The translations under genes were made by a program, and so were the position numbers. From contig JBEKHC010000058.1 of the NCBI GenBank assembly GCA_050012475.1, positions 1 through 41,714 of the forward strand: 41,714 bases of DNA. The letters are read 5' to 3'. Numbering within the stretch: the first letter of the stretch is position 1; the number at the start of each line of letters is the position of its first letter. Shown here one piece after another: positions 11,448 to 20,530 of this stretch. Origin of the DNA: Candidatus Velthaea sp. (lineage in GTDB: Bacteria > Vulcanimicrobiota > Vulcanimicrobiia > Vulcanimicrobiales > Vulcanimicrobiaceae). The notes below the pieces were generated by a model that saw nothing but the letters and a program-made list of their open reading frames with translations, searched no databases and had not been told where the DNA came from.

Positions 11448-12188
11448 ATGCTCGACGAACGGCTGCCGCTGCCCGAGTCCGTCGGCGCGCTCACGCACAT
11501 CGCGCTGCGCGGCTATCGACGCCGCTTTCTGCTCTATTTCGGGACGGCGTTTGCGGGGTTGCTCTTCGAGGCCGGCATCGCGTATCTGCGGCCCGGCGAC
11601 ATCGGGTTTTTTTATGCCGGTTCGATCGTGGTCGACGCACTGCTGGCCGCGCTCGTTACGATCGGCGTGGTAGCCGACTTGCGCGATGGCGATCGGCCCA
11701 CGAACGGCGCCGTCGCGGGGCGCGCGTTCGGGCGCTGGGGCATCGTCGCCGCGGTGACGACGCTCGTCGACGTCGTTACTTTCTTTAGCAGCAACGCCGT
11801 GTTCGGCCCCCCCGAATCGACCGCCTACGGATTGCTCAGCTTGCCCATCATCGTGCTCTGGGGCAGCGTCGCCTTTGCCAGCGTGATTGCCGCAATCGAC
11901 GAAAAAACGGCACCGGCGACGCTCGTTTTGTCGAGCATCGGCCGCAGTATCGGGCTTGCGTTCGCCCGCCAGAATTTCGGCCGGCTAACGCTGTTGGCGA
12001 TCGTCGCCGTGGTTCCGATGCTCATCGAGGCCGTGCTTTCCGATCAGCTCGAGATGCGCAAAGTGGCGGCCTGGCAATTCATCGCCAACATCCCGATCGA
12101 CGCCCTGGTGACCGGTCCGCTGCAAGCCGTCTTCACCGTCTTCTATCTCGACTTCGTGCGCCGCACCTCAGGCCCGCGCCCAACGTAA
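11448..12188 (+). CDS. Multi-pass membrane hypothetical protein
   Basis: About six hydrophobic segments; ends VFTVFYLDFVRR. Confidence 0.75.
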   Translation: MLDERLPLPESVGALTHIALRGYRRRFLLYFGTAFAGLLFEAGIAYLRPGDIGFFYAGSIVVDALLAALVTIGVVADLRDGDRPTNGAVAGRAFGRWGIVAAVTTLVDVVTFFSSNAVFGPPESTAYGLLSLPIIVLWGSVAFASVIAAIDEKTAPATLVLSSIGRSIGLAFARQNFGRLTLLAIVAVVPMLIEAVLSDQLEMRKVAAWQFIANIPIDALVTGPLQAVFTVFYLDFVRRTSGPRPT

Positions 12189-12245
12189 CAGCAGGGTTGC
12201 GCCGCGCCCAACCCGTGGCGTTGGCGGCTGCGCGTCAGAGACTTT

Positions 12246-13505
12246 CTAGCGGCCGGTCATGTGAGGCTGCTGTTGGCGGCGCGCCATTACTAGCTCCGCG
12301 TACAGCGCGTTGGGCCAGGCGAAATCGGCGCGGGTGTACTGCTCGGGCCAGTTCACGTCGAACGATTCGTGCAGCCGGTGGTCGCCGACGTCCGACGCGG
12401 CAATGTACCCCAGCACCCGGCGCGCTTCGTCGTTGTCGGTCGCCGTGAGCGCCTGCACGCACAAGGCCAACGGCCAGATGTAACCGTGCGGCGTGTGCGG
12501 GCTGCCGACGCCGGCGGCGTAACGCCCGTGGAAATAATACGGGTTGCGTTCCGACAGCACGAACGCGCGCGTCGTTTTGTAGAGTGAGTTTCCGGCAGGC
12601 AAATAGCCGTAGTACGGAATCGACAGGAGCGAGGGAATGTTGGCGTCATCCATGACGTTCGCATGCCCCAAACCGTCGACTTCGTAGGCGTAGATCCGGC
12701 CCACGCCTTTGAGTTCGAGCGTGCCGTTTTGTTCGATCCCGCGCTGGATTTCGACCGACAGGCCCCATGCGTTCTCGGCCATCTTCCCGTCGTTCCAGGC
12801 CGCCCGCGCGATGTTCGTCAAATCGCGCATGACCACGACGGCGAACATGTTCTCGGGGATATTGAAGTGATAGCGCGCCGGATCGTCGGAAGGCCGGAAG
12901 CCCGTCCAGACCATGCCGGTATAACGCACCGCACTGCCGCGCCCGCCGTTGGCAAGCTGATCGTGGCGATACGTCGAGCGCCGCTCGTGATGCTGCTCGT
13001 CGTGCAGCACTTGCAGCACGCGCGCGAACGCACGCCGAACCTCGGGGGTAAAGATCGAGCTATCGTGCGTCTGCCGGTAATATGCAGCGGCGAACCAAAT
13101 CGGATACAGCAGCGAGTCGACCTCGAATTTGCGCTCGGCAACCGTATAGCGCGACGTAAACGCGTTCGCATACGGATCGATCAAGATGTACTTCGCCTGA
13201 CGCGCGACCACGCCGCGCAATTTCGCGGCCGTTTGCGCATCGTGCATCGAAAACCGGATATACGGCCGGACGATTGCGCTCGAGTCGCGCAGCCAGTCGG
13301 CGTTGATGTCGCCGGTCGAAACGTAGGTCGTCCCATCCCGCTGGGTGGTCGCGTGACGTCCGATCGCTTCGTCGAAAGCGGTAAGATACAGGCGATCGAG
13401 CGTCGCGGTGACGGCCGCCGACAACGCCTCGCCGGCATGCGCGGGCGCCGCGACGATGAACGTTGCGAAAAGCAGCGCGATTGTTAGGCTCAGTAGACGC
13501 TTCAC
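12246..13505 (-). CDS. Secreted glycoside hydrolase family 125 (exo-alpha-1,6-mannosidase-like)
   Basis: TGDINADWLRDS, IDPYANAF, ERKFEVDSL, FRPSDD, MDDANIPSLL, GSPHT, FAWPN; signal peptide from GTG13505. Confidence 0.9.
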   Translation of the reverse strand: MKRLLSLTIALLFATFIVAAPAHAGEALSAAVTATLDRLYLTAFDEAIGRHATTQRDGTTYVSTGDINADWLRDSSAIVRPYIRFSMHDAQTAAKLRGVVARQAKYILIDPYANAFTSRYTVAERKFEVDSLLYPIWFAAAYYRQTHDSSIFTPEVRRAFARVLQVLHDEQHHERRSTYRHDQLANGGRGSAVRYTGMVWTGFRPSDDPARYHFNIPENMFAVVVMRDLTNIARAAWNDGKMAENAWGLSVEIQRGIEQNGTLELKGVGRIYAYEVDGLGHANVMDDANIPSLLSIPYYGYLPAGNSLYKTTRAFVLSERNPYYFHGRYAAGVGSPHTPHGYIWPLALCVQALTATDNDEARRVLGYIAASDVGDHRLHESFDVNWPEQYTRADFAWPNALYAELVMARRQQQPHMTGR

Positions 13506-13588
13506 GTTGTTACGGTATCTATCGGCAGGTTTTCGTAGTACCATGAATGCGAAACGCAATCCGCGTTCGTTCCTCTCCGAGGCAACCG

Positions 13589-14371
13589 ATGACCGTCCGT
13601 CGCCGCGCAGCCGCCGGCTCCATCGCACTGCTGTTCTTCGTGGTTTGCGCGGCGGCGCTCGCTAAAGCCGACCAAAGCTATCGCGTTGATGGAAGCGATA
13701 CATATCAGATCGGCGGAACCGACGTTCGGAGCGAAATCGCCTATACCGGGACCCAGCAGCTCAGCGTCCGGCAGGCCGGGAAAGCCCGTCACTACGTGGC
13801 GCATGCCGAATACCTGCGGAACGACCAAGGCACGCACCAGCGGATCAACGCTTCCTTCGAGTCGACCATTCTGCCCAACGGCGAGCAAGAGGATGGGACC
13901 AACAACGATCCCGATTATCTCACCGTGCTCAACCAGCCCTTTGCCGTTCAGCTCGATGCTGCGACGATGCACGACCTTGGTCATCTCTCAGGCTCCGTCC
14001 CTTTTGACTTTCCGTCGCCTATGACAGGCGCACCACTCCATGGCACGCTGCGTCGCGTTGGTACCGGTACGCTCAACGGCGAGCCCGTTCTCGGCGTTGC
14101 ATTCGATGCTAACGGCCCACTGGACGGGGCCCTTCCTGACCACCCGAACTTGGCCCTTGCGGGCCGCATCCGGATGAATGGAACCGCGTACTACACCGAG
14201 GCGGGCGCGCTGCTCTTGGCCCTCGACGCAACACTGTCGATCAGCGGAAACGTCGTCGGCAATGCCCGCCGCGACCCGGTCGAGATCGTCTACAAGCGTT
14301 CGCTCAAAGCGCTGCCGGCTGGTTCCCAACTCGACACCTCGGGCGAGCCGAAACAAACCGCCAAGCCCTGA
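13589..14371 (+). CDS. Secreted hypothetical protein
   Basis: Signal peptide MTVRRRAAAGSIALLFFVVCAAALAKA followed by a beta-rich-looking body. Confidence 0.7.
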   Translation: MTVRRRAAAGSIALLFFVVCAAALAKADQSYRVDGSDTYQIGGTDVRSEIAYTGTQQLSVRQAGKARHYVAHAEYLRNDQGTHQRINASFESTILPNGEQEDGTNNDPDYLTVLNQPFAVQLDAATMHDLGHLSGSVPFDFPSPMTGAPLHGTLRRVGTGTLNGEPVLGVAFDANGPLDGALPDHPNLALAGRIRMNGTAYYTEAGALLLALDATLSISGNVVGNARRDPVEIVYKRSLKALPAGSQLDTSGEPKQTAKP

Positions 14372-14388
14372 GCAGGCAAGCGGTTCCT

Positions 14389-14528
14389 CGCCAACCGCCA
14401 ACCGCCAATCGCCACCCGCGGCTTGGCGCGAAGCGCTTAACGCCACCGCGGCTTGCGGCGCAGCCGCAAACGCCACCGCGGCTTGGCGCGAAGCGCCAAA
14501 CGCCAAGGGTTCGGGCAAGCCCGAACCC
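14389..14528. repeat. Heptamer run, three 30-bp hairpin tandem units and a final hairpin
   Basis: CGCCAAY x3 (14389-14409); CGCCACCGCGGCTTG-hairpin-AA units at 14410, 14441, 14471; GGGTTCGGGC-AA-GCCCGAACCC at 14507-14528. Confidence 0.85.
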
Positions 14529-14586
14529 AGGTGGGCCAAACATCCCAACCGAGACCCCGGAATCGGCGCGGCTGGGGACGAAGCGC

Positions 14587-14613
14587 GAAACCGTCGCACT
14601 TTGACCCTGGTCT
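14587..14613 (+). promoter_or_regulatory. Possible ECF-type autoregulatory promoter
   Basis: GAAACC-N17-GTCT ending 10 nt before the sigma ATG; fits the general AAC.../GTC ECF pattern. Confidence 0.3.
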
Positions 14614-14623
14614 TGGACCGAAG

Positions 14624-15298
14624 ATGAGTGCCCTTGCACCGATCCTTGGGGATTACCGTTTGACCGTTCCGGCGACGACGCCGGCGCCGGCGCGTTTGGC
14701 AAAAGGTACGCCGGCACCCGAGAACTTCGAGAAGGTCGTCGACGACTACCAGCGGCGGTTGTACGGCTTCGCTTTGCGCATGACGGGCAATCGCGAAGAC
14801 GCCGAAGAGATCGTCCAGGACGCATTCGTTCGCGCCTACCGTGCGCTGACGAAAATGGACGAGCAGCAGCGCGCCGAGCTGCGGCTGCAACCATGGCTCT
14901 ACACCATTACTCTTAATGTTACACGTAACCGGCTGCGTTCGAAGCGCCCCACGAACGTCGCGCTCGATTCGCTTGCCGATCCCGATGCGCTGCTCAACGA
15001 AACGCAAGAAGGACCCGATCAACCCGAACACATCGTCGATCGCGCCGCGGATATGGTGCTCGTCGAGCAAGCCTTGCTGTCGCTGCCCATGCACTTACGT
15101 GCCGCCGCGACACTGCGGTTCATCGAAGGCCGAAGCCATCCGGAGATTGCCGAGATATTGAATCAGCCGATCGGGACCGTCAAGTCGCACGTGCATCGCG
15201 CCGTGCGCATCCTGCGTCGTATCCTCGGTCCACAAGTCGGCCGTATCGTTGCGGCGGAAACCGATGATTCGAAGGAGTCCACCGATGCGGTGCTGTGA
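14624..15298 (+). CDS. ECF RNA polymerase sigma factor
   Basis: Region 2 LYGFALRMTGNREDAEEIVQDAFVRAY...WLYTITLN; region 4 EIAEILNQPIGTVKSHVHRA. Confidence 0.95.
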   Translation: MSALAPILGDYRLTVPATTPAPARLAKGTPAPENFEKVVDDYQRRLYGFALRMTGNREDAEEIVQDAFVRAYRALTKMDEQQRAELRLQPWLYTITLNVTRNRLRSKRPTNVALDSLADPDALLNETQEGPDQPEHIVDRAADMVLVEQALLSLPMHLRAAATLRFIEGRSHPEIAEILNQPIGTVKSHVHRAVRILRRILGPQVGRIVAAETDDSKESTDAVL

Positions 15299-16055
15299 TG
15301 TCGAAGCCCTTTGGGACGATTTGCGTGACGGCGGCGAAGTCAATCGCAAACACGTCCTGCTGCATCTGCGGTCGTGCCCGCCGTGCCAGCAGCTTTACGA
15401 ACAGTACGAAGGCATCGCCTACTGCCTGACGTGTCTGCCGATCGTCGAGCCGCCGCGCGATCTGGTGCCGAAGATCATCGAGCATATCGAGGCGACGGTG
15501 CGTTCGGCGCGTAAGCCTGATTGCGTCGCGAAGGTCGATTCGCCGGTCGGCAAGCTGTACATCGCTTTTCGGTCGACGGGGATAACGGCCGTCGCGTTGG
15601 ACCGCGGCGAAGGCGACGAGGTCGCGCACGAGCATATCTCGCGCCGCTTGCGGCGCGGCGTCGTCGCCGCGGCGGCCCCGGCCTGGGTCAGCGAAACGCT
15701 CAACGCGTTTTTCCGCACGCACTTGCCGGACTACGATCGCGTCGATATCTCCGATCTGAGTCCGTTCGAGCAGTCGGCGTTGCGTGCAGCGGCGCAGATT
15801 CCGCCCGGCGAAGTTCGTTCGTACGGTTGGATTGCCGAAAAAATCGGCGCGCCGAACGCTGCCAGCGCGGTCGGCCGCGTGATGGCGCGTAACCCGGTGC
15901 GCATGTTGTATCCGTGCCATCGCGTCGTCGACGCCGCCGGGCATCTGCACAACTACGGGTACGGCCTCGACGTCAAGGCGCGTATTCTTGAGTTGGAAGG
16001 TTTTGTCGGCACCGTGCAAGTGGCAGAAAAGGCACGCTCGACGCAGCAGGTTTAG
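15285..16055 (+). CDS. Zinc anti-sigma (ZAS/zf-HC2) domain fused to methylated-DNA-protein-cysteine methyltransferase (Ogt/AGT)
   Basis: AAGGAG RBS; C3-x23-H27-x3-C31-x2-C34; then DSPVGKL, IPPGEVRSYG, NP..LYPCHRVV, YGYGLDVKARILELEG; overlaps the sigma stop. Confidence 0.9.
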   Translation: MRCCDVEALWDDLRDGGEVNRKHVLLHLRSCPPCQQLYEQYEGIAYCLTCLPIVEPPRDLVPKIIEHIEATVRSARKPDCVAKVDSPVGKLYIAFRSTGITAVALDRGEGDEVAHEHISRRLRRGVVAAAAPAWVSETLNAFFRTHLPDYDRVDISDLSPFEQSALRAAAQIPPGEVRSYGWIAEKIGAPNAASAVGRVMARNPVRMLYPCHRVVDAAGHLHNYGYGLDVKARILELEGFVGTVQVAEKARSTQQV

Positions 16056-16111
16056 CGCGCAGCGATTCGCGAAAGAAGCTCTTCATACGACGTCCGCGGC
16101 TCCGCTAAACA

Positions 16112-16290
16112 CAGATGATCGGCGGTTAACAGACGGACAAGAGGAGGTGATCATCGTTACTTGCGACAGTTCCCAACACAGCCAGAAATCGATGATTGGA
16201 GGTGCGCAGACGTAGGGTCCGTCCCGAGGCTGCGCAGCTAGAGAAAACCCCGAGATCTTGTCCGCCGGCCGCCGTGGCCGGCTTTTTTTT
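16112..16290 (+). ncRNA. Candidate structured small RNA or leader (family not recognised); 5' end uncertain
   Basis: Intergenic, lower GC, several internal complementarities, two GGAGGTG tracts, ends in a clear intrinsic terminator. Confidence 0.45.
16264..16290 (+). terminator. Rho-independent terminator
   Basis: GCCGGCC-gccgt-GGCCGGC followed by T8. Confidence 0.9.
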
Positions 16291-16524
16291 GCCATCGATA
16301 CGAACGGCATTCGGCCAAAGGCCTTCGGGGCGATTGGGACGAAAAAGACATGTCGTGTCTGAGCGCGTCCTCTCGACGAGCTTCGAGCGGTTCGGTGATT
16401 GCCGTGAGATTGCAGCCCGCGAGCGGCACCCGTTCGCACGCTGGGCGGTTTGCATCGGCTGTCCCGCCCCGACCGATGCAGGCGTTGCTCCCGGCCAAGG
16501 CTTTTCCCGCGGTTTGCGATCCCT

Positions 16525-18885
16525 TTGGCGCACTGCGGCATCCCCGCGGAATACGAACACTTGAACGACAACGCTGAACACGACCCGCGTTTGCACGCGA
16601 TACCCGACACGCACGGGCACGCCAAGGGCGAGCACAAGGCCTTTACCGACGAGCGGCCGATCCCGCTCTCGGCGCGCATGCTCTTCCTCTGGTTCTACCA
16701 CGCCTGCCGGCGCGGGTCGCCGCGTTTCTTGATGGTCAGCGACCACATGAACTATCTGACGTTCGAGGATCCGGCAGCCATTAATCTCGTGCGCCGGGCG
16801 CTCAAGCTGGCTCAAGCCGGGGATCTGTACGGAGCGGCCGAGACAGCAAGCGTCGAGGTTGGCCACGCGGCGGTCGTCTCTGAAGGTTTGCGCCGCGGCA
16901 TGCGCTATTCGATCGGCGCGGAGGTCGACAACGACCCTCGCTCGCGGCCCGACGCGCAAAACATCGTCGACGCGATGAAGCCCGACGGAATGATCCGGTC
17001 GGTCCACTTCCTGACGATCGACCATCCCGCGCACGGACCGAACTGGAACTGGCCGTTCGACAATCCCGAATTTGCCGAAGTCTACGAAATCGTCGGCACG
17101 GCAAAGCTTTGGGAGCTCTACATGGCAACGCTGCTGGACGCCATCGAACGGCTGCCGGGCAACATCGTCGGCCACTTCTATGTGCCGGCGCTCTTCGGTC
17201 ATTGGCCCGACGACGCGGCGCTCGACGAGTACGAAAACCAGCTCGTCGACGCCTGCGAAGCACGCGGCATGGCGATCGAATTCAATACGCGGTTCCTCTA
17301 CCGCGAACACTCCGACGAAGAAAAGGCGAAGTACCTCGCGGCGCATCGCCGGCTGCTCGCGAAGTGCAAGGCGAAAAACGTGGGGATCGCGGTCGGATCC
17401 GATGCGCACAGCCCCAAAGATCAGGGCGGCGCGTTTACGACGGTGCTGGCCCTGCTCGACGAATGCGAGATCAACGAATTGGTGTTTCCGCTGGCTGGCC
17501 GGTTGGCGCGCGTCGCGCTGCGCGTCGAACGCAAGCCGGAACCGGTGCCGGAACCGGCTCCCGCGGCGTCAGATGAACGGAAGTCGGCGCGCCGGGCGCG
17601 GCCGGTCGAACCTGCGGCACTCGAGGAAGCCTCGTCCGCTTCGACTCCGGCCGCCGAACCGCCAAAGGCCAAGCCGGCGCGTCCCAAGCGCAAGCCGAAA
17701 GCCTCCGACAGCGTCGAGGCCGTTGCGGTCGCGCAGGAAATCGCGCACGTATCCGCCGCCGGCCACGAAGGCACCGAGATCGAGCACGCCGATGTCGAAC
17801 CGGTCGCGCCAGAGCCGGTACCAGCGTACGCCGAGGCGGGTTTCGAATCGGCAGCCCAGCCCACGGCAAGCGAAGTTCGGCCCGCGCAGCAGGCCGAAAC
17901 CGAACCCGAGGAAACGGCCGAAGACAGGACCGAGCCGGCCGCCGCGGAGGCTGCCGGAGAAGCAAATTCCGAAGCGGCGGTCGCTGACCACGAAGCCGCT
18001 GAAATCGAGCCGGACGCCGCTTCCGCCGCCGCCGAAGCCGAGCCGGCAGTCGTGGCCGAGGCTGAGCCGGCAGTCGGGTTCGAGCCCGTAATCGTTGCCG
18101 AGACCGAGCCCGCAGTCGTCGCCGAGACCGAGCCCCTAATCGTCGCCGAGACCGAGCCCGCAGTCGTCGCCGAGACCGAGATCGAGCCCGCGATCGTCGC
18201 CGAAGCGGAGGCGGCGGCGGTCGCCGAGGACGAGGTAATCGAAGCCGATTTCGAGTCCGTCGCTGGCGCCGAAGCGGAGCCCGAACCGGCGGCGGCCGCC
18301 GCAATCGAGCCTGGCGGCAACGTTGTAGTCGTCGAAACCGCGGACGCTTTCGTAAGCGCGCCGATCGAGGATATCGTCGGCGAAGCGGAATTCGAGCCGA
18401 TCGTTAACGGGGCGGCGGAATCGGCCGAGAACGAGGCGGCCGAATCCGCCGAGGGCGCCGGCGAAACGCTTGAATTTCCGCCGCTCGAAAGCGAAGAAAA
18501 CGTCGTTATCGTTGTCGCCGAACCGAGCGTTGTCGAGGTGGTCGAAGCTCCGGTCGTGCGGCGGCCGCGAAGCAAAGCTCCGGCTACGAAAGCGAAGGCC
18601 TCGGTCGCCAAGAAGCCCGCCGCCAAGCCCAAACCGGCCGCAAAGAAGGCCGCCAAACCCACGGTTAAGGCAGCAGCGAAGAAGGCTGCGGCCAAGAAAA
18701 CCGCGAGCAAAAAGGCCGGCGCGCAAAAATCGGCCGCGAAGAAAGCGGCGGCCAAAAAAGCCGCGCCCAAAAAAGCCGCTCCGAAGAAAACCGCGGTTCG
18801 TGCGACCGCTGCAAAGAAAGCGGCTCCCAAGAAACCAGCGGCAAAAAAGACGACGCCGAAAAAAGCCGCGCAGCGGCGGCGCTGA
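16525..18885 (+). CDS. PHP-family (HisJ-like) phosphoesterase with long acidic linker and histone-H1-like Lys/Ala tail; start uncertain (TTG 16450 or 16525)
   Basis: DTHGH, SDH, GAEVD, SVH, VGH, IEFNT, GSDAH metal motifs; E/A/P-rich middle; KKAAAKK/PKK repeats at the C-terminus. Confidence 0.85.
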   Translation: MAHCGIPAEYEHLNDNAEHDPRLHAIPDTHGHAKGEHKAFTDERPIPLSARMLFLWFYHACRRGSPRFLMVSDHMNYLTFEDPAAINLVRRALKLAQAGDLYGAAETASVEVGHAAVVSEGLRRGMRYSIGAEVDNDPRSRPDAQNIVDAMKPDGMIRSVHFLTIDHPAHGPNWNWPFDNPEFAEVYEIVGTAKLWELYMATLLDAIERLPGNIVGHFYVPALFGHWPDDAALDEYENQLVDACEARGMAIEFNTRFLYREHSDEEKAKYLAAHRRLLAKCKAKNVGIAVGSDAHSPKDQGGAFTTVLALLDECEINELVFPLAGRLARVALRVERKPEPVPEPAPAASDERKSARRARPVEPAALEEASSASTPAAEPPKAKPARPKRKPKASDSVEAVAVAQEIAHVSAAGHEGTEIEHADVEPVAPEPVPAYAEAGFESAAQPTASEVRPAQQAETEPEETAEDRTEPAAAEAAGEANSEAAVADHEAAEIEPDAASAAAEAEPAVVAEAEPAVGFEPVIVAETEPAVVAETEPLIVAETEPAVVAETEIEPAIVAEAEAAAVAEDEVIEADFESVAGAEAEPEPAAAAAIEPGGNVVVVETADAFVSAPIEDIVGEAEFEPIVNGAAESAENEAAESAEGAGETLEFPPLESEENVVIVVAEPSVVEVVEAPVVRRPRSKAPATKAKASVAKKPAAKPKPAAKKAAKPTVKAAAKKAAAKKTASKKAGAQKSAAKKAAAKKAAPKKAAPKKTAVRATAAKKAAPKKPAAKKTTPKKAAQRRR
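18031..18230 (+). repeat. Coding 24-bp tandem repeat (AE[T/A]EPA[V/I]V)
   Basis: GCCGAGACCGAGCCCGCAGTCGTC-type units at 18097, 18121, 18145, 18169 with degenerate copies on both sides. Confidence 0.85.
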
Positions 18886-18889
18886 GCGG

Positions 18890-20530
18890 ATGAAGCGACG
18901 GCGCCTCGGCGCGCTCGTGTGTGCGCTCCTCTTTGCTGCGTGCTCGAAAGTCGACCCGTCGTCGGCTCCGCCCGCGGGCGGAGAACACGCCTGGACACAC
19001 CCCGGCGAACTTCGCATTGCGATTCAAAGCGAACCGATGACACTCAATCCGGTGCTGTCCTCGAACACGACCGAAGGACTCCTCAATCGGCTGTCGTTCG
19101 ACACCCTCGTCTCGGTCGAGGCCGACGGGAAGACGCTCGTCCCGATTTTAGCCAAAACGGTCCCGAGCGTTGCGAACGGCGGAATCTCGAGCGACGGGCT
19201 CACGATCACGTACCGGCTGCGCTCCGGCGTCAAGTGGCAAGACGGCGTGCCCTTCACGAGCAAAGACGTGAAATTTACCTGGCAAGCAATGTTGAACAAT
19301 AACAACAACGTCACCGCGCGGGTTGGTTACGAGGACGTTCGCCGCGTCGACACGCCCGATGCGACGACGGTCGTTTTCCATCTCAAGCAGAAGTTCGCGC
19401 CGTTCGTCAACACCGTCTTTGCCGAAAGTGACGATCCGATCTGCATCGTGCCCGAGCACATCCTCGGAAAATACAAAGACGTTAATCGGGTTCCGTTCAA
19501 CCAAATGCCGATCGGTACGGGACCGTTCAAAGTGGTGCGCTGGGTGCGCGGCGACCACATCGAATTGGCCGCCAATCCGGAGTACTTTCTCGGGCCGCCG
19601 AAACTCAAGACGATCGTCGTGCGCGAAGTTCCCGACGAGAACACGTCCATCAACCAGTTGCGGACGCACGACATCGATTGGCTCTTCGAGCCATCGCCCA
19701 ATCTCTACAATGTCCTCAAGACGGTCCCGGAAACGACGATCCGTCTCGTCGAGCAGCCGGGGACACTGCGCCTGCTCATGAATCTCACCCGGCCGGTCCT
19801 CGAAGATATCCGGGTCCGCCGCGCGATCGCCTACGCGGTCGATAAAGAATCGCTGGTCGACCGGCTGACAGGCGGCTCGGCCCGCGTCGCCGGCGCCGAT
19901 CAACCGCCGTTCTCATGGGCGTACCGGGCGAATGTGACCACCTACGGCCCGAACGTCGCCAAGGCCCGCGCGCTGCTGACGCAAGCCGGATTCACGCCAG
20001 GTCCGAACGGAATCTTCCAGAAGAACGGCCAGCCGCTGACGCTCGAGCTCTCGACCAACACCGCCAACGTCACCCGGCGGTTGGTTCAAACGCAGGTTCA
20101 GGCGATGCTGCACGCCGCCGGCATCGACGCGCCGATCAAGAACTACCCGGGCAATCTCTTCTTCGCCACGTACGGTCAAGGCGGCGTGCTGTCAACTGGG
20201 AAGTACGATCTGGCGATCTACGGTTGGATTGCCGGCATCGATCCCGACGATCATGCCTTGTACGGCTGCAACCAGTTCCCGCCGCACGGCACGAACTACA
20301 GCCGGTATTGCTCGGCAGCGATGGATTCAGCCCAGCGGGCCGCGCTTGCCAGCTACGAGCAGCCTCCACGCAAAAGCGCCTATTTCACCATTCAAGAGCT
20401 CATCGCCGCGGACGTGCCCGAAGTCATCGTCTGGTATGCCCGTACGCCGCAGGCGACGAATCCGGACTTCAAAGGCTTCGCGCCAAACCCGGTAAATGAA
20501 GCCTGGAACGCCTATCAGTGGGAGATCTAA
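18890..20530 (+). CDS. ABC transporter peptide-binding lipoprotein (family 5)
   Basis: Lipobox LFAAC; SSDGLTITYRLRSGVKWQDGVPFTSKDVKFT; PIGTGPFK; VRRAIAYAVD. Confidence 0.92.
   Translation: MKRRRLGALVCALLFAACSKVDPSSAPPAGGEHAWTHPGELRIAIQSEPMTLNPVLSSNTTEGLLNRLSFDTLVSVEADGKTLVPILAKTVPSVANGGISSDGLTITYRLRSGVKWQDGVPFTSKDVKFTWQAMLNNNNNVTARVGYEDVRRVDTPDATTVVFHLKQKFAPFVNTVFAESDDPICIVPEHILGKYKDVNRVPFNQMPIGTGPFKVVRWVRGDHIELAANPEYFLGPPKLKTIVVREVPDENTSINQLRTHDIDWLFEPSPNLYNVLKTVPETTIRLVEQPGTLRLLMNLTRPVLEDIRVRRAIAYAVDKESLVDRLTGGSARVAGADQPPFSWAYRANVTTYGPNVAKARALLTQAGFTPGPNGIFQKNGQPLTLELSTNTANVTRRLVQTQVQAMLHAAGIDAPIKNYPGNLFFATYGQGGVLSTGKYDLAIYGWIAGIDPDDHALYGCNQFPPHGTNYSRYCSAAMDSAQRAALASYEQPPRKSAYFTIQELIAADVPEVIVWYARTPQATNPDFKGFAPNPVNEAWNAYQWEI

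Follow-up and report, generated by a model that had tools for sequence, protein, structure and literature searches.

We have analyzed a DNA stretch of 41,714 nucleotides (nt) from Candidatus Velthaea sp. (contig JBEKHC010000058.1 of GenBank assembly GCA_050012475.1), which is called the window hereafter. The subject of this study is a pair of overlapping genes in it, which encode a sigma factor of the extracytoplasmic function (ECF) type and a protein in which a predicted zinc anti-sigma (ZAS) domain is fused to an O6-alkylguanine-DNA alkyltransferase (AGT) domain. The main features of the locus are as follows.

14587-14612, plus strand: predicted ECF promoter, with the -35 hexamer at 14587-14592, a 17-nt spacer and the -10 element ending at 14612
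14624-15298, plus strand: ECF sigma factor gene, 224 amino acids (aa), with Pfam domains Sigma70_r2 and Sigma70_r4_2
15285-15512, plus strand: predicted zinc anti-sigma domain (ZAS/ASD-like), residues 1-76 of the fusion, with C3/H27/C31/C34, an extra C47-x2-C50 and a fourth helix at 61-75
15513-16055, plus strand: O6-alkylguanine-DNA alkyltransferase domain of the fusion (PF01035, TIGR00589, Foldseek), with S194 and R206

The open reading frame (ORF) of the sigma factor matched Sigma70_r2 (E=3.8e-16) and Sigma70_r4_2 (E=8.7e-13), and in NCBIfam it matched TIGR02937 above the cut-off; SigW models were the best matches but stayed below their own cut-offs. The fusion ORF (15285-16055, 256 aa) overlaps the sigma ORF, as the original prediction had described; the overlap measures 14 nt, and the two genes are translationally coupled. 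The sigma core is 84-98% identical across 32 relatives, as expected for a core regulator.

The N-terminus of the fusion reads C3-x23-H27-x3-C31-x2-C34 followed by C47-L-T-C50, and all motifs previously claimed for this protein, including PCHRV in the AGT domain, were found in its sequence. In an alignment of the query with the 120 best of 1353 homologues (121 sequences), C3, H27, C31 and C34 are kept in 116, 117, 118 and 118 sequences, respectively, and the sequences without these ligands are gaps in N-terminally truncated homologues. The extra pair C47 and C50 is kept in 120/121, and is not part of the consensus of the distant family described below. The proposed scan with profile models gave a divided answer: DNA_binding_1 (PF01035) was detected with E=5e-27, whereas zf-HC2 matched neither the window protein nor its first 76 residues alone, though it matched 22/33 orthologous N-termini at E<=1 (best 1e-5). 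When a profile of the orthologous N-termini was used, the top two PDB sequences were RsiW (5WUQ, E=0.0026) and the anti-sigma chain 3HUG_B (E=0.092), the latter of which we take to be RslA. The AlphaFold model has helices at residues 3-14, 21-30, 32-42 and 61-75 with low confidence (pLDDT 48-69, mean 62), and a fold search with this isolated domain model was uninformative (best Z 2.8; RsiW Z 2.5, rmsd 16.9). On the homology to RsiW, 3HUG_B and zf-HC2, the domain is a predicted ZAS anti-sigma domain of class I descent, and the previous assignment holds in this respect.

The C-terminal domain has the sequence and fold of the Ogt/MGMT family, and methyl transfer is predicted. TIGR00589 scored 76.4 bits against a cut-off of 46.4, and the best Foldseek match of the fusion was M. 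tuberculosis OGT (E=1.1e-12). In the AlphaFold model the AGT part is confident and the first 76 residues are weak; the two-domain AGT fold directly abuts the ZAS part, extending from about residue 77-83 to 240. The active-site motif P210-C-H-R-V is present, with PCHR in 121/121 aligned sequences, as are Y180, N203, C211, H212, R213, K231 and E238, among which we take Y180, N203, K231 and E238 to be the equivalents of human Tyr114, Asn137, Lys165 and Glu172. Two substitutions went unmentioned in the original prediction: the window protein has S194 in place of the arginine finger, and R206 at the position equivalent to human P140. The finger is R in 95/121 homologues and S in 26/121, and the pair S194 and R206 occurs together in 25/121, which form the window's own subclade. 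The arginine finger (human Arg128) is reported to stabilize the flipped base in AGTs (PMC10814553), and for its mutant no paper was found in our literature search. Because of the Ser at this position, repair of duplex DNA by the window's own copy is less likely, while the claim for the family is unaffected.

Named relatives of the fusion are genomes of Vulcanimicrobiota (Eremiobacterota). The full-length fusion was found in all 116 genomes of the same order (113/113 of the own family, including one unpublished genome, G178, and 3/3 of the other family), and other orders gave AGT-domain matches only and no full-length fusion. The sigma factor is present in 3/3 same-order and 0/14 other-order genomes. 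It lies directly upstream of the fusion in 37/37 full-length loci examined, with a gap of -14 to +8 nt where both gene ends were called. The expectation that the gene pair is conserved was therefore confirmed by these 37 loci, and by the 67/72 distant AGT loci with an ECF sigma upstream.

The genome encodes other AGT proteins as well, namely a canonical Ada (contig C57), a plain Ogt and the partner in a second ECF sigma-AGT pair (L052 537-1941, on contig C44 of G000). At its N-terminus this second partner has only a short helix, and at its C-terminus a zinc motif like that of Ada, with a weak Ada_Zn_binding match (E=5e-4, below the cut-off). Similar pairs occur in 3/3 sister-family genomes. 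Two to four AGT domains per genome were found in 11/11 genomes checked, and Ada_Zn_binding in 14/27 genomes of the family (two partial matches). In the domain scan, neither Ada_Zn_binding nor an AraC helix-turn-helix was found on the window protein; both are present in the separate gene on C57.

Predicted promoter and target genes

The original prediction had pointed to 14540-14623 as the promoter region, and a promoter of autoregulatory type was found there. It ends 11 nt before the sigma ATG, leaving no space for a Shine-Dalgarno sequence, and is likely autoregulated and leaderless or nearly so, as judged from the sequence. The motif G[AC]AAC[CT]-N16-18-GT[CT] was found in 33/37 orthologous sigma loci against 0.4 expected, and with a matrix trained without its own site, the sigma promoter ranked first of the 2757 upstream regions in the genome. 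In 3/4 runs of one study the RNA contigs start at 14623-14636, and the bin 14489-14609 is covered by none; since contigs cannot show a start site, these were not used as evidence. Between the upstream gene and the promoter, at about 14410-14505 of the window, lie three imperfect copies of a repeat of about 30 nt; in the relatives inspected, the 130 nt before the gene did not contain it.

The predicted regulon was tested by searching for the motif within 130 nt upstream of orthologues across genera and comparing the counts with the shuffle expectation. The motif was found before trxA, which had been chosen a priori as a test gene, trxB and htrA in 18/21, 21/26 and 17/19 cases, respectively (0.2 expected for each), and before clpC, clpB and folK-folE2 in 7/13, 6/15 and 6/27 cases (0.2, 0.1 and 0.1 expected). 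It was rare before the repair genes tag, mpg and ada (2/27, 1/27 and 2/13; 0.4, 0.2 and 0.2 expected), in a survey of relatives that did not extend to alkA and alkB. An earlier version of this test, which used a matrix, gave the same ranking of genes, with other AGT genes at 4/19 against 1.4 expected. The motif keeps a fixed position: at trxB it lies 11-13 nt upstream of the ATG, and at trxA the distance is mostly 24-31 nt, which leaves a Shine-Dalgarno sequence in between. In the window genome it is present at trxA, htrA, clpB, clpC and folK. Three clpB sites overlap a repeat that we take to be CIRCE-like.

A discovery scan of five genomes with the leaderless pattern gave 68 matches, compared with 28 for the reversed control. 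Its recurrent targets were the sigma factor, an HtrA-like protease, ClpB, a FolK-FolE2 fusion and a protein that Atlas connects, as a lead only, with glutathione synthase/ATP-grasp clusters, and single matches included TrxB, OsmC, Dps, NifU and Tag. The tag gene, a candidate from one genome, was rejected as a target (2/27 genomes), and at msrB, a candidate from the own genome, the site is mostly not conserved (2/30, 0.3 expected). A different motif, GCATCC..CGTT, was observed before 4/30 msrB genes (L317-L346) and before 4/4 copies of another ECF sigma with an RskA-like partner (L387, L389, L427), and since it is common to both, a separate ECF controlling msrB is suggested. A protein of about 480 aa without Pfam or NCBIfam match has the sigma's motif in three genomes (L211, at G000 C49 12425-13876; L162; L191); Atlas links it, as a lead only, to glutathione synthase/CP-ATP-grasp clusters, and it may be an enzyme of low-molecular-weight thiol synthesis.

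Concerning the question of which sigma reads the motif, an ECF survey covered the 30 best loci per search, and 55/61 loci yielded a sigma-like ORF. The motif was found before 6/7 copies of the sigma and before 0/48 other sigma-like genes (seven genomes and one own-genome locus). Four other conserved ECF types of the family have no such motif upstream; three of them have distinct motifs of their own, which score 0 at the predicted target genes of the sigma. In five genomes of another family, one that lacks the sigma, the motif within 130 nt was found before trxA in 0/5 and before trxB in 0/5. From the autoregulation argument, this co-occurrence and the exclusion of the other conserved ECFs, we infer that the sigma reads the motif.

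Distant relatives and the nature of the switch

A profile search detected a wider family. Among 39 hand-picked distant proteins of it, zf-HC2, AGT and a C-terminal Ada_Zn_binding domain occur together in 8, and in many others the N-terminus is reduced to a short helix. A survey of 80 genome loci, which were the best matches from 3 of 64 collection parts, left 72 with enough flank. An ECF sigma lies directly upstream in 67 of these 72, including 15/15 loci whose partner has HxxxCxxC (nine from Acidobacteriota, Chloroflexia and HR23). The partner is without HxxxCxxC in the other 57, of which 52 still follow the same kind of sigma with the AGT kept, and for this reason the AGT appears to be the constant part of the family. 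In a sigma tree, which contained neither SigR nor SigH sequences, 71 rows including the window's sigma form one supported clade (95/85), with six AGT-partnered sigmas outside. The -35 element TGCAAC was found before 40/61 distant AGT-partnered sigmas of other phyla (2.2 expected), usually with GTT 17-18 nt later, and this recurrence suggests that the motif travels with the sigma clade.

Genes downstream of the distant pairs are mostly unrelated to repair, with one Oxygenase-NA and one LigD among six scanned. In one Actinomadura genome (n=1), the clade promoter gave 11 matches against 4 for the control and was located before the genes of the sigma, of a separate Ogt and of an Oxygenase-NA protein. 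A GGAAT..GTT site stands before trxB in that genome and in one of Nonomuraea. Since the clade promoter precedes the Ogt and Oxygenase-NA genes there, this single genome hints that the ancestral output was alkylation repair. One candidate sigma-ZAS-AGT fusion (P0134) was rejected, as it reads as a frameshifted copy of a normal pair. As a side observation, two genes (L121 2291-3007 and L123 2306-3025) encode an AGT that carries a Phd/YefM antitoxin-like domain at its N-terminus (E about 2e-5, below the cut-off); they have no sigma upstream and are possibly another AGT-built regulator.

The reading that we prefer, and that we judge about equally likely to prove right or wrong, is that the fusion would be an anti-sigma factor released by covalent cysteine damage, gating a thiol and protein-damage regulon like those of SigR and SigH. 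The ZAS domain, which on family knowledge is inferred to bind the sigma, would hold the co-encoded factor inactive. Alkylating or other thiol-reactive agents would damage cysteines of the fusion and release the sigma; with Cys211 of the AGT modified, or the ZAS and extra CxxC cysteines, the protein would unfold or be marked for proteolysis. In human MGMT, the active-site Cys145 is reported to be inactivated by thiolation and nitrosylation (PMC11854478), and the alkylated human enzyme to change structure and undergo degradation (PMC10814553). The released sigma would turn on its own operon and the genes for thioredoxin, thioredoxin reductase, HtrA, ClpB and ClpC. As products of this response, Clp/HtrA and Trx would also return the switch to its initial state. 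Because the motif precedes thioredoxin, protease and chaperone genes and rarely DNA-repair genes, a cell-wide alarm for cysteine damage is likely, rather than a substitute for Ada. In this order, the role that SigR/SigH play in actinobacteria appears to have passed to an ECF-AGT module that ancestrally sensed alkylation.

Several points weigh against this reading. The gene msrB, a typical thiol-stress gene, is mostly without the motif and partly has that of another ECF (4/30), the window genome's own trxB has no site, and 2/5 trxB regions of the control genomes match at 130-250 nt upstream. A matrix score above 10 was found before 4/13 ada genes against 0.2 expected, so that in some genera the targets may include a number of repair genes. 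The motif expression was fitted after the sites had been seen and the relatives are not independent; htrA, trxB, clpB and folK were first spotted in the five genomes, two of which (G011 and G045) are also in the test sets, and the ECF survey was confined to the best loci stated above. The redox-sensitivity signature of RsrA, reported as E39, E40, L45 and E46 around HCC (PMC3177212), is largely absent from the fusion: the corresponding positions of the window protein are R29, S30, Q35 and Q36, and only the last is E in homologues (86/121). The input signal of the switch is uncertain.

The original prediction had proposed an adaptive response in which alkylation of the AGT domain, or its binding to a lesion, releases the sigma. 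In a rival reading of this Ada-like kind, methyl transfer from O6-methylguanine to Cys211 would be the sole physiological trigger and the purpose would be to replace spent enzyme and to induce alkylation repair. The operon is likely autoregulated and release would therefore yield more AGT, and several comparisons speak for such a response: zf-HC2, AGT and Ada_Zn_binding stand together in 8/39 distant proteins, the sigma is upstream at 9/9 ZAS-AGT-AdaZn loci outside Vulcanimicrobiota, the Actinomadura clade promoter precedes the sigma, Ogt and Oxygenase-NA genes while trxB there has the GGAAT..GTT site, and 95/121 close homologues keep the arginine finger. In this lineage, however, the model was not supported and we consider it unlikely, since the genome already has a canonical Ada, a plain Ogt and a second ECF-AGT-AdaZn pair (with 2-4 AGT domains in all 11 genomes), the motif marks mostly trxA, trxB and htrA and is rare at tag, mpg and ada, and the window's clade has Ser at the finger. 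The predicted SigR/SigH-like regulon and the loss of the finger in one subclade would also suit a switch of the RsrA type for redox or heat, in which sensing is confined to the ZAS cysteines and the extra CxxC, through disulfide formation and zinc loss, and the AGT is a co-regulated passenger from the ancestral module; C47 and C50, kept in 120/121 and not in the distant-family consensus, fit this as well. We give it little credence, because the catalytic residues of the AGT are intact in 121/121, the fusion is full-length in every same-order genome, the RsrA signature is largely absent, and the AGT is what stays constant at the 57 distant loci without HxxxCxxC, 52 of which still follow the same kind of sigma.

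ECF promoters resemble one another, so the motif might be read by a different sigma, for which the sigma-AGT operon would be just one target among others. Alternatively, the zinc domain at the N-terminus, for which the domain evidence is modest (RsiW E=0.0026 and no Pfam match in the window protein), might be structural and not bind the sigma. Both are very improbable in our view; against a different sigma, the four other conserved ECF types lack the motif upstream and three have their own, and the motif accompanies the sigma clade in different phyla and is not found where the sigma is absent. Returning to release by cysteine damage, a bolder and distinctly more doubtful version would make the suicide alkyltransferase the anti-sigma's sensor, and this switch the order-wide master regulator of thiol and protein-damage defence, in which Cys alkylation directly induces thioredoxin, Clp and HtrA. 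The window's subclade would have swapped the base-flipping Arg for the sensing of small electrophiles, and the same module, with ZAS or a single helix, would be the missing anti-sigma of sigmas of the ECF122/ECF203 type.

Elements downstream of the fusion

Two further features follow the locus.

16092-16290, plus strand: conserved structured element, putatively linked to the locus, with a perfect Shine-Dalgarno sequence, a 20-codon ORF without AUG start (16153-16215) and an intrinsic terminator
16525-18885, plus strand: gene whose product joins a PHP/HisJ-family phosphoesterase domain to a long, acidic linker of low complexity and a Lys/Ala tail resembling histone H1

The 5' part of the element forms a hairpin in two parts, in which two pairs show compensatory changes (7/28). 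It is followed by the Shine-Dalgarno sequence, an ATC or GTC codon and a small ORF of 15-24 codons ending in MIGG-x3, with the terminator after it. The frame of the small ORF is kept in 95/96 GTDB matches, nearly all from Vulcanimicrobiota. The fusion precedes it in 71/77 cases, and the PHP gene, which is conserved beside the sigma-fusion locus, follows it in 76/77. Rfam gave nothing credible in 12000-20000 and no match for the element, and when 16056-16295 was folded by itself, it did not surpass shuffled sequences (z -1.1), so that the structure is supported by the alignment only. Two RNA contigs bridge the element and the AGT gene. The element may encode a small peptide with a non-AUG start or may be a ribosome-binding small RNA; sigR has been reported with a GTC start (PMC5472188).

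Comparison with known systems

The guess in the original prediction that the pairing already appears in ECF classifications was right. Both ECF122 and ECF203 are listed as entirely (100%) from Actinobacteria; their members have MGMT at +1 and lack a putative anti-sigma (Casas-Pastor et al. 2021, PMC7826278; PMC8999054); supplementary file 1 of PMC7826278 was available in part, and other ECF groups may mention such pairs. These two groups resemble the window locus in having an O6-methylguanine methyltransferase gene at +1 of the ECF sigma, and ECF203 contexts hold Ada_Zn_binding as do the helix-AGT-AdaZn partners found here. The window system differs from them in its occurrence in Vulcanimicrobiota, the full ZAS domain of the +1 protein and the predicted thiol and protein-quality regulon. 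The promoter given for ECF122 is CTCAC/CGTCTAC, unlike G[AC]AAC/GT[CT] here, and a CTCAC..CGTCT pattern was found in 0/61 distant AGT-partnered loci.

In our literature search, with subscription journals outside it, no experimental work on the sigma/ZAS-AGT system was found, and the word "sigma" does not occur in the available text of an AGT review (PMC10779285). Since the ECF-MGMT neighborhood was already known, what is new is the predicted thiol and protein-damage output and the alkyltransferase as the C-terminal domain of a ZAS anti-sigma. If true, this would provide a mechanism for ECF groups listed with an MGMT neighbor, no anti-sigma and an unknown mechanism, would be a second route besides Ada linking a self-consuming repair enzyme to transcription, and would reveal what probably corresponds to SigR/SigH in an abundant soil lineage that has been little studied. 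A laboratory host would allow the sigma, its putative inhibitor and several natural promoters to be tested together, and a sigma gated by alkylation would be of use as a sensor part.

RsiW of B. subtilis is membrane-anchored and is released via intramembrane proteolysis, and the AGT domain stands where RsiW has its membrane and extracellular parts. In the SigW-RsiW complex (PDB 5WUQ), RsiW is the closest solved sequence to the fusion N-terminus, including the helix after the linker. E. coli Ada, which is reported to signal via its N-terminal phosphotriester site and AraC-type domain (PMC10779285), resembles the fusion in having a methyl-accepting repair domain on the regulator itself, and distant relatives of the fusion carry both Ada acceptor domains. 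Unlike Ada, the fusion has no phosphotriester site or AraC-type domain, would act by sigma release and coexists with a real Ada.

SigR-RsrA of S. coelicolor and SigH-RshA of M. tuberculosis share with the system predicted for the window a soluble ZAS anti-sigma, positive autoregulation, a similar promoter geometry and trxB and clp targets. In those systems, as at the three clpB sites noted above, the clpB promoter coincides in part with a heat-shock repressor site, which here is presumably CIRCE-like. The window system differs in that its predicted anti-sigma is fused to an alkyltransferase, has an extra CxxC and largely lacks the RsrA signature, in the second base of its -35 element (A/C), and in that msrB is mostly outside the predicted regulon. 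The SigH consensus of M. tuberculosis is reported as GGAAYR-N17-GTT with targets including trxB2, clpB and possibly clpC1 (PMC4803200), and the SigR regulon as covering thiol redox, proteolysis and trxB (PMC4921905). By motif only, the window system resembles SigR and SigH as a predicted autoregulated ECF sigma with its motif before thioredoxin and Clp genes.

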